Source: Candidatus Woesearchaeota archaeon
Lineage (GTDB): Archaea > Nanobdellota > Nanobdellia > Woesearchaeales > SKGA01
DNA length: 11,860 nt
Direction of reading: 5' to 3'
Assembly: GCA_016926395.1 (NCBI GenBank)
Contig: JAFGOT010000018.1
Location: 1-11,860, forward strand
The notes under the pieces are model-generated. The model was not told where the DNA came from. It ran no database searches and was given only the letters and a program-made list of their open reading frames with translations. Positions 5,375 to 10,253 of this stretch are shown piece after piece; the first letter of the stretch is position 1, and each line of letters starts with the position of its first letter. Made by a program: the position numbers and the translations under genes.

Positions 5375-6571
5375 ATGGAACGCACATTTAAGGATTTGAT
5401 ATTGTCTTTGTTTCCTTTATCAAAAAATCACAAGTTAACAATAAGTAAGTTATCTAATGACTTAAAACCTGAGCAAATAAAAGATATAAAATATTTGTTA
5501 AAAACAAAGAAAATAGGAATTGTAACAACGCCAACAAGAATATCCAAAGAACTGGCTCATTTTTCTGCTTACACACAATTTCAAATAATGATTGAAAATC
5601 CTCAAGTGCAGACTTTCATAAATGATATTAATCATCAAGTAAAAGAAAGTTCTCAAAGAAATTCATATCATTCGTTTTCAAAACATGCATATGAAAGATT
5701 AGTGCGATATATTGCTCCAAACATTTTGGGTCTTGCTGAAATAAAAGAATCAGTATTGTTATTATTATTTTCAAAAGAAAGATTTCACATTTTATTAGTT
5801 GGTGATCCTGGAACTGGAAAAACAGATATAATAAGATCGGCACAAAGATTGGCTCCAATATCTTCGTTCGGACTTGGATCGGGAACAAGCGGTGCAGGTC
5901 TTAGTGTTTCAATGAAAGGAAAAGAATTGGAACTTGGATTACTTCCTCTTGCCCATCAAGGAATTTGCTGTATTGATGAATTAAACTTAATGCAAGTTCG
6001 AGATCGAGCCGCACTATATAGTGCTATGGAAAAAGGTTTTGTAACTTATGATAAAAAAGGAATGCATAAACAAATCCCTGCAGAGATAAGAATACTGGCA
6101 ACGGCTAACCCTGTTGGAGATAAATTTGTTGGAAGAAGTTTAAGTGTATTAAAAGAACAATTACCTTTTGATGCAGCATTGCTATCTCGATTTCACTTAT
6201 CTTATGTTATTAGAGAACCAGACGCTCATAAACTTGCAACCATTGCTAAAAAAATAGTTAAAAGTGATTCAATAAAATTAAGAGAAGAAGACTTAGAATA
6301 CATAAAAGGCTACATTGAATATTCATTAAAACAAGATGTAGAATTTGACAAACGTTATGCGCAATTAATTTCTGATTTTATTGAAGATGTAAAAACTAAT
6401 GAAAGTAAATATGTTGTAGAAATAGGCCCTCGATTAGTTCATGGAATAATGAGATTAGCACAAGCAAGGGCGAGAATAGAATTACGAGACAAGACAACTA
6501 AAGAAGATGTTTTAGAAGCAATAAGGCTTGTTAAAGATTCCCTATATATTGAAGACATAGTTCGTCCTTGA
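5375..6571 (+). CDS. Minimal MCM-family AAA+ ATPase lacking the canonical N-terminal domain and C-terminal winged helix
   Basis: Motifs IAPNILGLAEIKE, Walker A GDPGTGKT (from 5801), Walker B CCIDE (5966-5980), pre-sensor-1 hairpin VTYDKKG, sensor 1 ATANP, Arg finger LLSRF (6188-6190) and sensor 2 GPRLVHGIMRLAQARA. SD GAGGT lies upstream. The protein is only 398 aa. Confidence 0.88.
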   Translation: MERTFKDLILSLFPLSKNHKLTISKLSNDLKPEQIKDIKYLLKTKKIGIVTTPTRISKELAHFSAYTQFQIMIENPQVQTFINDINHQVKESSQRNSYHSFSKHAYERLVRYIAPNILGLAEIKESVLLLLFSKERFHILLVGDPGTGKTDIIRSAQRLAPISSFGLGSGTSGAGLSVSMKGKELELGLLPLAHQGICCIDELNLMQVRDRAALYSAMEKGFVTYDKKGMHKQIPAEIRILATANPVGDKFVGRSLSVLKEQLPFDAALLSRFHLSYVIREPDAHKLATIAKKIVKSDSIKLREEDLEYIKGYIEYSLKQDVEFDKRYAQLISDFIEDVKTNESKYVVEIGPRLVHGIMRLAQARARIELRDKTTKEDVLEAIRLVKDSLYIEDIVRP

Positions 6572-6572
6572 G

Positions 6573-6577
6573 AAAAA
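6573..6577 (-). terminator. Possible oligo(T) terminator of the sRNA
   Basis: TTTTT on the minus strand begins 3 nt after the 3' terminal stem. Oligo(T) runs act as archaeal terminators. Confidence 0.35.
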
Positions 6578-6579
6578 TT

Positions 6580-6643
6580 TCCCTCAGATAACTCTCTTCT
6601 CATCACTAAAAAGTTTCAGACGGGAATAACCTCATCATAGGGA
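6580..6643 (-). ncRNA. Box C/D 2'-O-methylation guide sRNA
   Basis: The minus strand reads UCCC-U-AUGAUGA(C)-GGUUAUUCCCGU-CUGA(D')-AACUUUUUA-GUGAUGA(C')-GAAGAGAGUUAU-CUGA(D)-GGGA. All four boxes match consensus, both guides are 12 nt, and a 4-bp terminal stem UCCC/GGGA with a 3-nt bulge gives K-turn geometry. There is an upstream TATA-like element and a downstream T5 run. Confidence 0.92.
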
Positions 6644-6666
6644 TGTTTTATCAGAATTCTTTTTGA

Positions 6667-6674
6667 TTTAAAAA
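6667..6674 (-). promoter_or_regulatory. TATA-like box for the C/D sRNA
   Basis: TTTTTAAA on the minus strand lies 24-31 nt upstream of the sRNA 5' stem at 6643. Confidence 0.5.
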
Positions 6675-6702
6675 TTATTTGATTGCTCTTACTTTAACAA
6701 AA

Positions 6703-6763
6703 TTTATAAGTGCCGATTTGACTTTTAATGTTGGTTCTTTGGTTAGATTAAACATTTGAGGTG
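6703..6763 (+). promoter_or_regulatory. TATA box (6703-6709) and SD (6758-6763) for the dehydrogenase
   Basis: CAAAA-TTTATAA, then GAGGTG 9 nt before ATG 6773. Confidence 0.55.
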
Positions 6764-6772
6764 TTATATTTT

Positions 6773-7777
6773 ATGCAAATAAGCTTTTTCGAACTAGAAA
6801 ACTGGGAAAAAGAAATTTTTCAAAAAGCATTACCAAAACACAAATTACTTTTCGACCCAAAACCATTAACTGCTAGAAATGCTCTAAAGCACAAAGACAG
6901 CGAAGTATTGGCGATATTTGTTTTCTCAAAAATAACTAAACAAGTTTTAGACAAATTTTCAAAACTAAAATATATTGCGACAATGAGTACTGGATTTGAT
7001 CATATTGATTTAGAGGAGGCAAAAAAAAGAGGAATAAAAGTTTCTAATGTTCCTTTTTATGGACAAAATACTGTGGCTGAACACGCATTTGCTTTACTTC
7101 AAGCATTAAATAGGCACATTGTAGAAGCAGTTTGGAGAACAAGAAATCAAAAATTCGATTACAAAGGTTTGATGGGATCTGATCTTGCAGGAAAAACAAT
7201 TGGTATTTTGGGAACTGGAAACATTGGCCAACACATGATTAGATATGCTAATGCATTTAACATGAATGTTATTGCCTATGATAAATTCAAATCACTGGCT
7301 TTAGAAAAAAAACTTAACTTCAAATATGTGAGTTTGAAGAAACTTTGCACGACTGCTGATTTTATTTCTTTGCACTTGCCTTTGGTTGAAGGAACTTGTC
7401 ACATAATTGGTGAAAAAGAATTTGATGTTATGAAAAAAAGTGCGATGATAATTAACACTGGTCGAGGACCTTTAATTGACACAAAAGCTTTGATTGATGC
7501 TTTGAATAAAAATAAAATTGGAGGAGCTGCTTTAGATGTTTTGGAATTAGAAGATGATTTAAGAAAAGAAGCAAAAATGGCTTCATCAAGTTTTGTTAAT
7601 CCTAACAGACTTCACGGACTTGTAAAAAATCATGCATTACTTCACAAACCTAATGTTATTGTAACTCCTCATCTTGCATTTTATACTCGAGAAGCAGTCA
7701 CTAGAATAATGGATACTTCAGCTCAAAATATTAAAGGTTATATTAATAAAAAGTATAAGAATTTAGTAAAAATGTGA
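6773..7777 (+). CDS. ldhA: D-isomer-specific 2-hydroxyacid dehydrogenase, D-lactate dehydrogenase-like
   Basis: Motifs STGFDHID, VSNVPFYG..VAEHA, GILGTGNIG (NAD-binding), INTGRG (catalytic Arg), ALDVLELE (Glu) and VTPHLAFYT (His). Start re-called to ATG 6773 after SD GAGGTG. The lactate substrate is an inference. Confidence 0.85.
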   Translation: MQISFFELENWEKEIFQKALPKHKLLFDPKPLTARNALKHKDSEVLAIFVFSKITKQVLDKFSKLKYIATMSTGFDHIDLEEAKKRGIKVSNVPFYGQNTVAEHAFALLQALNRHIVEAVWRTRNQKFDYKGLMGSDLAGKTIGILGTGNIGQHMIRYANAFNMNVIAYDKFKSLALEKKLNFKYVSLKKLCTTADFISLHLPLVEGTCHIIGEKEFDVMKKSAMIINTGRGPLIDTKALIDALNKNKIGGAALDVLELEDDLRKEAKMASSSFVNPNRLHGLVKNHALLHKPNVIVTPHLAFYTREAVTRIMDTSAQNIKGYINKKYKNLVKM

Positions 7778-8625: not shown

Positions 8626-9642
8626 TTGACAAAAACAAAATATCATAACATATCGATACTTACTTCTGATGTCTATGCTAAGGCAGGGTCCAAAATATTT
8701 GTTGAATTTGATCGAGGGAAAAAAAGCGATTCTGCTGATGACAAAAATCTGCTAGTTCTTCCAAGAGATATATTCGATGAATTAAAATATTTAAAGAAAA
8801 ATCCCAAATATCAAAATAAGCTCGAAGAATTTTTTTCTGATTTAGATAATTATACTTCTAAAGGAATGAATAATTGCCCGATAGAAAATGATAAAGATAA
8901 AAAATTAAACTTTTCAATAGGTCAAATTTCAACTGGTTTAGATATTGCATTAGTCGATGGAGCTTCTGATTTAAGTTATTTAGTTAATTCTCTTGGTTCT
9001 TTTAATCCTGATGAATTAAAAATAATTTCTTCAAATCCCGAAACAAGATTTGATTACAAATCTAAAAAATTACCTGTCGAAGCTCCAAAAATATTATTGG
9101 GGGATATTTCTATCTTAAATCAAGGAGTAATAAATGGTTCTAAAAACTTGGAAGCTAGATTAAATGAAGTAGAAAATAATATTCTTCCAATTGAAGAAGC
9201 AGAATCATTTTTTGATAAAAAAGAGCTTTATATGAATCAAGTTGTGCGACTTGGAAAAGAAGATTATGCAATAGTTGAAGGCGATATTAGTCGTGGACGA
9301 TGGGGTGCGATAAATAGAGCTGATAATGTGCGTTTGAGATTGTTACATCCTAGAGAAAAGTCAAAAAAAATAATTTTAGGAAAACAAGTAATGCCTTCGT
9401 TTATTGGTTTGACACCAAGAGATATGACTCAGTATATTGCATTACAATATGGTTTATTAAATCCTAATGTTTCGTTGTTATTTTTAGTTGGTGGTGCGGG
9501 TTCTGGTAAAACTCTACTTTCGTATGCTGCAGCAATGTACCAAAGATTGGAATTTTCAGAAAAAGGTTTGAAAGATAAAAACTGGGAAACCCTTTTGCTA
9601 GACCAACTCCTGAACAGGGAACTGATGATCCTTTACACTTAA
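8626..9642 (+). CDS. PIN-PhoH (YlaK/PhoH2-like) protein, N-terminal part: degenerate PIN-like domain, linker and Walker A
   Basis: PIN-like segments 'LLVLPRDIFDELKYLK' and 'LKIISSNPETR', linker 'LYMNQVVRL', and PhoH start 'IGLTPRDMTQYIAL...LLFLVGGAGSGKTLLSYAAA' (Walker A 9490-9513). TTG start with GAGGG upstream. Confidence 0.8.
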   Translation: MTKTKYHNISILTSDVYAKAGSKIFVEFDRGKKSDSADDKNLLVLPRDIFDELKYLKKNPKYQNKLEEFFSDLDNYTSKGMNNCPIENDKDKKLNFSIGQISTGLDIALVDGASDLSYLVNSLGSFNPDELKIISSNPETRFDYKSKKLPVEAPKILLGDISILNQGVINGSKNLEARLNEVENNILPIEEAESFFDKKELYMNQVVRLGKEDYAIVEGDISRGRWGAINRADNVRLRLLHPREKSKKIILGKQVMPSFIGLTPRDMTQYIALQYGLLNPNVSLLFLVGGAGSGKTLLSYAAAMYQRLEFSEKGLKDKNWETLLLDQLLNRELMILYT

Positions 9643-10253
9643 TGTCTAAGTTAAAATATAATGGTAATCGTGCTCCTATTTATTCTAATCTGGTTTTATT
9701 AAAATCGGATAATGCTGCAGGAGGTAGGGAAGTTGGTTTCTTGCCTGGTTCTTTATTTGACAAAATTGTTGATGACTTAAAACCATTTGAAGATGCTCAC
9801 AAGATACTTCATTTTTACAGAGATTTTGAATTTGGAGATTTGATATATCATCAAAACAGAGAGCTACCTAGAATTGGAGGTCCAAGAAGTGCGGCTGCGG
9901 CGAAAGCAGAATATGATAATGGTAAACTACCTATTGGTCCTGCTCTTGAAGTTACTCATTTTTCAAAATTTAGAGGAAGATCTTTTGAGAACACTTTCCT
10001 AGTTGTTGATGAAGCACAAAACTTTACGCCGCAAGAAATGCAAGTTATAATAACTCGAATGGGTACTGGTTCTAAAGTTGTGGTTTTAGGAGATCCAAAC
10101 AAACAAATCGACAATGTTGATTGTACTCGAAACTACAATGGAATTGTCCAACCTGTGGAAGAATTTTTAGATAAACCTTATTCTATGCTTATAAATTTAG
10201 GATCAAAATACCGTTCTGAGATGGCTAAAGACGGTGACGATTGGAATGTATAA
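9642..10253 (+). CDS. PhoH-family ATPase, C-terminal part (frame open from 9579)
   Basis: Motifs REVGFLPGS, FRGRSF, LVVDEAQN, IITRMGTGSKVVVLGDPNKQID and YRSEMA. It lacks a Walker A, which lies in the upstream ORF. Confidence 0.85.
   Translation: MSKLKYNGNRAPIYSNLVLLKSDNAAGGREVGFLPGSLFDKIVDDLKPFEDAHKILHFYRDFEFGDLIYHQNRELPRIGGPRSAAAAKAEYDNGKLPIGPALEVTHFSKFRGRSFENTFLVVDEAQNFTPQEMQVIITRMGTGSKVVVLGDPNKQIDNVDCTRNYNGIVQPVEEFLDKPYSMLINLGSKYRSEMAKDGDDWNV

Follow-up and report, generated by a model that had tools for sequence, protein, structure and literature searches.

The window considered here, i.e., the whole stretch of DNA that was analyzed (11,860 nt), belongs to a woesearchaeal genome of 1,016,835 bases with 32% GC. 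In this window a gene encoding an MCM-domain protein (5375-6571, plus strand) and a gene encoding a D-2-hydroxyacid dehydrogenase (6761-7777, plus strand) are separated by a gap of 189 nt (6572-6760), for which the list of open reading frames contains no overlapping frame of at least 60 aa. On the strand opposite to both flanking genes, the gap holds a predicted box C/D sRNA that measures 64 nt with both stem arms included (6580-6643, minus strand), a designation based on its sequence, on its being the sole match to a four-box pattern in the genome and on the existence of homologs. The arrangement KsgA, MCM-like gene, sRNA and dehydrogenase is a neighborhood conserved within the genus.

Regarding the other genes of the window, the MCM-like protein (398 aa) contains only the MCM P-loop and lid domains and shows ~60% identity in three related genomes (G001, G003, and G010); its ATPase module begins near residue 102, so that the N-terminal domain usual in replicative MCMs is absent. 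Two abutting open reading frames on the plus strand, one without a Pfam match (8626-9642) and the other with a PhoH domain that is matched from profile position 50 (9642-10253), look like a split or frameshifted gene of a PhoH-type ATPase (8626-10253).

Structure of the sRNA Element

Read 5' to 3' on the minus strand, the element begins with the 5' arm of a terminal stem, UCCC (6640-6643), which pairs with the 3' arm, GGGA (6580-6583), located at the opposite end, and both arms covary among homologs. An unpaired U (6639) separates the 5' arm from the C box AUGAUGA (6632-6638), in which positions 2-7 (UGAUGA) are invariant in 61 aligned homologs, the first base being A or G. The 3-nt bulge of the K-turn consists of this U6639 and the first two bases of the C box. 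The C box is followed by the D' guide of 12 nt (6620-6631), which has a core that is invariant in the sRNA family and a predicted target at 23S G2446 or, alternatively, G1908, and then by the D' box CUGA (6616-6619), invariant in the 61-member alignment. A spacer of 9 nt (6607-6615), which varies in sequence and in length (from 3 nt up) among homologs, closes the internal C'/D' K-loop and leads to the C' box GUGAUGA (6600-6606), nearly invariant in the same alignment. The D guide, also of 12 nt (6588-6599) and with a predicted target at 23S C1920 in the 3' strand of helix 69, precedes the invariant D box CUGA (6584-6587). Outside the element, a TATA-like box, TTTAAATC (6665-6672, minus strand), starts 34 nt upstream of the C box, and a run of five T (6573-6577, minus strand), which is likely an archaeal termination signal, lies 2 nt past the 3' stem arm, right beside the stop codon at which the convergent MCM-like gene ends.

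The initial annotation of this DNA had proposed the C, D', C', and D boxes, two guides of 12 nt, the UCCC/GGGA stem with its 3-nt bulge, and the TATA-like box and T-run, and re-reading of the sequence confirmed every one of these elements at the same positions of the minus strand. The assignment to the archaeal guide RNAs made in that annotation was also upheld, as the element displays the canonical C/D layout, with C and D boxes, a C'/D' K-loop with a short spacer, guides of ~12 nt and a covarying stem.

Occurrence of the Four-Box Pattern

A strict four-box pattern matched the whole assembled genome at a single place, 6580-6643, and matched nowhere in 40 genomes simulated with a second-order Markov model that keeps the same trinucleotide statistics; a reversed control pattern gave no match across 41 related genomes. 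Since the constellation of boxes is unique in the genome and absent from the simulated ones, and the reversed control was empty, it is not explained by chance. Neither the strict scan nor two relaxed scanners retrieved a convincing second canonical C/D sRNA in this genome, a result that concerns canonical elements, given that pattern scans of both kinds are blind to sRNAs with degenerate boxes. In 41 relatives of the order the strict pattern matched at most once per genome and always in the same sRNA family, and one genome of 0.6 Mb with 98% completeness (G034) had no sRNA match and neither fibrillarin nor Nop5. Judging from these scans, the guide RNA repertoire of the genome, and of the order, may be minimal.

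At the Rfam gathering thresholds nothing was reported for the element of the window nor for 17 related archaeal loci, in agreement with the earlier remark that annotation pipelines usually miss RNAs of this type. The matches below threshold belonged nearly all to C/D families and spanned the full element; the best of them was snoR38 (RF00213), with 40.4 bits (E 1.9e-5) over the full length and a gathering score of 45 bits, and snoPyro_CD reached 27.8 bits.

Conservation, Stem Covariation and Promoter

BLAST searches against 40 relatives detected ten genomes with homologs, nine from the same genus or family and one from another family of the order. A pattern scan of public data, with one genome per prokaryotic species, yielded at least 80 loci, the majority of them labeled Woesearchaeota or Nanoarchaeota. 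Contigs of Methanothermococcus and of Hodarchaeota (Asgard) carry a recognizable sRNA of the same family. In contigs of Pyrolobus, Desulfurococcales, and Marsarchaeota the match was limited to the C-box/guide/D'-box motif and, as no C' or D boxes could be parsed, these may not be sRNA genes. Two further loci, L074 (DASPMU010000030.1) and L109 (CAYRAW010000263.1), correspond to one contig binned as Alphaproteobacteria and one match labeled Roseburia. The Alphaproteobacteria-binned contig contains a member of the archaeal-type sRNA family complete with its terminal stem, an indication that the contig is archaeal and was mis-binned, and the Roseburia-labeled match, without C' or D boxes, has the look of a coincidence.

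In an alignment of 61 distinct members among the matches listed, the boxes and the core of the D' guide are invariant and the flanks are divergent. Within these 61 homologs, 77.6% of the cells of the terminal stem are paired compared to 55.2% in shuffles (none of 500 shuffles reached the observed value), and the covariation score of the stem is 0.621 vs 0.234 in the control. Pairing dropped to 48% or less once the partner was slid, and the mean stem length was 4.57 bp vs 2.58 bp when the 5' flank was paired with the 3' flank of another locus. The family contains 30 different types of 3' arm, with double changes at all 6 stem pairs.

A conserved feature was also found upstream of the gene. Over the 80 non-redundant loci listed, TATA-like 8-mers peak between -40 and -31 from the C box, with 51 occurrences in these two bins vs ~1-8 per 5-nt bin elsewhere. 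The clustering of this motif at a fixed distance supports a promoter belonging to the sRNA gene itself and gives substance to the previous suggestion that the RNA is independently transcribed. Downstream, a run of four or more T within 20 nt is present in just 24 of the 61 aligned homologs, and for this reason the T-run speaks only weakly for a terminator.

These observations bear on the possibility that the motifs came together by chance in an AT-rich intergenic region, or else that the element is a decayed relic devoid of function. Such an origin would be in keeping with the failure to find L7Ae in the assembly and with the silence of Rfam at its gathering thresholds, but it is hard to reconcile with the lack of the pattern in all 40 simulated genomes, with orthologs having invariant boxes and a covarying stem across the whole family and beyond, with a promoter motif kept at a conserved distance, and with a guide complementary to rRNA at 11 of 12 positions. 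The conservation data effectively refute this explanation, to which next to no credence is given here. As far as can be judged from sequence and its conservation, 6580-6643 (minus strand) is a genuine, conserved and previously unannotated gene for an archaeal box C/D guide sRNA.

Relative to its kept neighbors, the sRNA gene has in this genome and in G010 the orientation opposite to that seen in G001, G003, G004, G006, and G012 (positions 6540-6790 of the window; loci L010, L008, L013, L006, L012, and L014). A search for inverted repeats flanking the sRNA gene that could explain the flip returned nothing but weak AT-rich pairs.

The two guides have followed different courses in the family, in which the D guide is exchanged while the D' guide stays fixed (L036-L113, public Woesearchaeota/Nanoarchaeota contigs). 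Among the matches listed, the D guide pairs with 23S ~2435-2444 in 31 of the 61 members and with helix 69 in 7, the type to which the sRNA of the window belongs, and the remaining 23 carry other sequences.

Predicted Target of the D Guide

Because no 16S or 23S rRNA was found in the assembly (82.5% complete), target sites were read on the rRNA operons of ten relatives, five of them of the same genus, with positions numbered by alignment to the annotated E. coli 23S rRNA; the target sequences did not differ among these relatives. The D guide forms 11 of 12 Watson-Crick pairs with 23S 1916-1927, which comprises the loop and the 3' strand of helix 69 and is identical in sequence in the ten relatives examined; one of 400 shuffled guides scores as well. 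At the fifth guide position from box D there is a G-C pair with C1920 (E. coli numbering), and it is predicted from this pairing that the D guide selects 23S C1920 in helix 69, within the intersubunit bridge B2a. The expectation that a guide would match the rRNA of the organism was thereby borne out on the 23S of same-genus relatives, taken in place of its own unassembled rRNA.

The D guides of two homologs, L008 (G003) and L011 (G017), have an A at the fifth position, opposite C1920, and helix 69 of these genomes is unchanged. In both cases methylation may have been lost and pairing kept.

Predicted Target of the D' Guide

Two sites of 23S rRNA are to be considered for the D' guide. At the peptidyl-transferase center (PTC), guide positions 2-11 pair with 2443-2452 by means of 9 Watson-Crick pairs and 1 G-U pair, selecting G2446 through a C-G pair at the fifth position; the G-U pair (guide U with G2447) adjoins the target, and position 1 is a mismatch. 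At the 5' strand of helix 69 all 12 positions pair with 1904-1915, with 8 Watson-Crick and 4 G-U pairs, selecting G1908. Taken alone, the match to the PTC is of modest significance, given that 16 of 400 shuffled guides reach the same score.

Targets outside 23S rRNA were discarded. The best pairing against the 23 tRNAs of the genome has 7 of 10 Watson-Crick pairs, and the 10/10 complements present elsewhere in the genome (3 for the D' guide and 2 for the D guide) were judged to be about as many as chance would give for 10-mers in 2 Mb. Helix 7/8 of 16S rRNA (~G147) was dismissed as a D' target, the best 16S sites in same-genus relatives having at most 7 of 12 Watson-Crick pairs.

If the D' guide were directed to G1908, the sRNA would open both strands of helix 69 and lead to methylation of G1908 and C1920, and the PTC would not be a target. 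The pairing of the guide with 1904-1915 is the sole 12/12 site in the rRNA operons and abuts the D target at 1916-1927, in a helix that is a known methylation hotspot (PMC4644070). Moreover, all 7 members of the helix-69 type end their D' guide in U, which gives a wobble with G1904 and a mismatch with C2442, whereas 24 of the 31 members with a PTC-adjacent D guide end it in G; nevertheless, the 7 members all come from one family and this association is therefore not independent evidence. Other data are at odds with G1908 as the target. The same D' guide core occurs in lineages in which the D guide is PTC-adjacent or unrelated; over positions 2-11 the duplex at the PTC surpasses that at helix 69, which has 8 Watson-Crick and 2 G-U pairs beside the target; and the order of the two targets, with that of D' located 5' of that of D and no linker between them, would be opposite to what is expected from an antiparallel double guide. 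In addition, G024 and Methanothermococcus carry a perfect-complement version of the D' guide, and in the guides of L015 and Methanothermococcus, which have C and not U at position 6 from box D', 11 of 12 positions match the PTC. All things considered, methylation of G1908 in place of G2446 seems doubtful, with a likelihood that is small without being trivial.

The PTC site is thus favored on three grounds, namely that the guide core is kept across lineages with differing second guides (in 31 of the 61 listed members the D guide is complementary to a sequence just 5' of the PTC site), that the members with C at position 6 match the PTC in 11 of 12 positions, and that published sRNAs with the same guide have been assigned there. 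On the strength of these pairings, G2446 (central loop of domain V, at the PTC) is preferred to G1908 as the most likely nucleotide to be selected by the D' guide.

Protein Machinery and Proposed Mechanism

The initial annotation had anticipated that the genome would encode fibrillarin, Nop5, and L7Ae. The first two were found, with 212 bits for fibrillarin and 169 bits for Nop5, in intact and adjacent genes that overlap by 4 nt (contig C33 of the genome, G000; nop5 at L002:1390-2139, plus strand, 249 aa; fibrillarin at L002:2136-2918, plus strand, 260 aa). The third, L7Ae (TIGR03677), was not detected in the assembly (82.5% complete), whereas a search of 20 relatives, 12 of them congeneric, found it in every one; most likely, its gene lies in the unassembled part of the genome. 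The gaps of the assembly, which has no L7Ae, no 16S/23S rRNA, and only 23 tRNAs, are consistent with 82.5% completeness. Two matches to the Pfam L7Ae family were set aside, one being L30e beside nusA and the other, probably spurious, falling in a 157-aa open reading frame that resembles a HAD-type hydrolase by sequence. At the level of the order, fibrillarin was detected in 38 and Nop5 in 37 of 41 genomes.

The Nop5 protein is short. In alignments, its residues 14-237 correspond to 122-363 of the protein from S. solfataricus, and its residues 23-243 to 133-370 of that from P. furiosus, meaning that the fibrillarin-binding N-terminal domain (~120 aa) is missing, and there is no room for such a domain upstream of the gene. 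These alignments to solved Nop5 structures replaced the Pfam profile NOP5NT (PF08156), which matched no control genome and was uninformative. The open frames of Nop5 have 239-287 aa in all members of the same family vs 304-420 aa in most other families of the order. Since the Nop5 of this family is devoid of the domain that normally holds fibrillarin, assembly of the RNP may be non-canonical. Fibrillarin has a basic N-terminal extension rich in Lys, Ser, and Gln of ~36 aa ahead of the Pfam domain; that it compensates for the missing domain of Nop5 is a matter of speculation.

The sRNA, the nop5/fibrillarin pair and the 11/12 match of the D guide sustain the earlier prediction that this organism keeps RNA-guided methylation. 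The preferred reading, to which we assign a probability of about 0.88, is that the minus strand at 6580-6643 holds the gene of an archaeal box C/D guide sRNA of 64 nt that has a promoter to itself and targets C1920 and most likely G2446. By analogy with known C/D RNPs, L7Ae would bind the terminal C/D K-turn and the internal C'/D' K-loop, and a Nop5 dimer would bridge both motifs and position two molecules of fibrillarin. Each 12-nt guide would pair with rRNA, and the rRNA nucleotide opposite the fifth guide base upstream of box D or D' would receive a 2'-O-methyl group; guide binding may also aid local folding of the rRNA. A guide of 12 nt provides the spacing required for methylation by archaeal C/D RNPs. 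It is on this analogy that we infer transcription, RNP assembly and the methylations themselves.

A related proposal would accept the C/D sRNA as real and regard it mainly as a chaperone of rRNA folding in which at least one of the two guides does not direct methylation. A role of this sort for double guides has been discussed (PMC4644070; PMC7994747), and the proposal would accommodate both a Nop5 without its fibrillarin-binding domain and the A opposite C1920 in G003 and G017, where pairing persists without a Watson-Crick pair at the target. It is opposed by the G-C pair that the copy in the window has at the target and by the length of exactly 12 nt of both guides, by the conservation of fibrillarin (212 bits) in a gene that overlaps nop5, and by the coincidence of the sites with known methylated or predicted sites elsewhere. 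A mainly chaperone function is for these reasons quite improbable, and the sRNA is better regarded as a methylation guide.

Comparison With Known Guide RNAs and Methyltransferases

Both predicted sites have precedents in archaea. The RNA-seq-detected sRNAs Mma sR101, Mka sR7, and Iho sR414 have a predicted target at 23S G2720, and Mma sR104 and Sac sR20 at 23S C2186 (Dennis et al., 2015; PMC4644070, supplement); the same work gives the equivalences C2830 = E. coli C2556 and A2178 = E. coli A1912 and describes helices 68-71 and the PTC as methylation hotspots. Conversion by these equivalences places G2720 at G2446 and C2186 at C1920, and with published sRNAs assigned to them both sites are already known as conserved archaeal targets. 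The sRNAs of Methanococcus maripaludis, Methanopyrus kandleri, Ignicoccus hospitalis, Thermoproteus tenax, and Sulfolobus acidocaldarius coincide with that of the window in RNA class, boxes, and predicted sites, and in Iho sR414 and Tte sR140 the PTC guide has essentially the same sequence as the D' guide described here. There are differences as well: M. maripaludis uses two separate sRNAs for the two sites, which in the window correspond to two guides of one sRNA, and in comparison with the published archaeal sRNAs the PTC guide of the window has a U that gives a G-U pair with G2447. A further difference concerns the host, whose mesophile-type DPANN genome (32% GC) yielded no other canonical sRNA.

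A more distant likeness exists with the eukaryotic RF00213 family, for which the sites yeast Gm2812, Arabidopsis Gm2805, and human Gm4362 have been listed (PMC3511168). In yeast snR38, plant snoR38Y, and human snR38A, as predicted for the sRNA of the window, the guide upstream of box D' selects the equivalent G of the large subunit rRNA. We take yeast Gm2812 to be Gm2815 in current numbering and, based on the shared GGGAUAAC context and on the yeast numbering, we presume that G2446 is the site of yeast snR38. The eukaryotic snR38 RNAs exceed the archaeal one in length, the Rfam alignment showing an insertion of 18 nt, and their second guide is unrelated to the one found here. The likeness to snR38 may be due to convergence on a stretch of rRNA that does not vary, and not to common descent.

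As for the second site, the bacterial enzyme TlyA 2'-O-methylates 23S C1920 in helix 69, at bridge B2a (PMC5778110). The nucleotide is the same as that predicted for the D guide and the outcome is alike, but TlyA is a stand-alone protein enzyme that works without guide RNA and the mechanism is different. Within the same sRNA family there is also a paralogous type of Woesearchaeota/Nanoarchaeota, with a D guide containing GUAACU, which has the same boxes, D' guide, and promoter distance. The D guide of that type has its pairing site at 23S ~2435-2444, about two bases of which also belong to the D' target; in the family of the window (7 of 61 distinct members) it has been replaced by a helix-69 guide.

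Significance

The sRNA described here leaves the understanding of the C/D system unchanged. What it contributes is one more gene that escapes standard pipelines, given the silence of Rfam at its thresholds. Two leads would be of greater weight if confirmed, namely the possible restriction to a single canonical guide RNA per genome and the truncated Nop5. In a broader and tentative scenario, which we consider unlikely at present, RNA-guided methylation in the family, perhaps in the order, would have been reduced to a single guide RNA for G2446 and C1920, which rank among the most conserved 2'-O-methylation sites of archaea, operating with a truncated Nop5, and the D' guide would belong to a pan-archaeal lineage (DPANN, Methanococcales, and Asgard, with the motif of the guide also in contigs of TACK archaea) of common ancestry with eukaryotic snR38. 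If this were true, the guide would join the very few guide RNAs with a history that can be followed back beyond the divergence of archaea and eukaryotes.

With regard to the biology of the organism, it is predicted that a DPANN genome of ~1 Mb still invests in RNA-guided methylation of its rRNA, at one nucleotide of the PTC and at one nucleotide of helix 69 at the subunit interface. The same two sites are targeted in M. maripaludis, a mesophile with few C/D sRNAs, which hints at a minimal core of archaeal ribose methylations.
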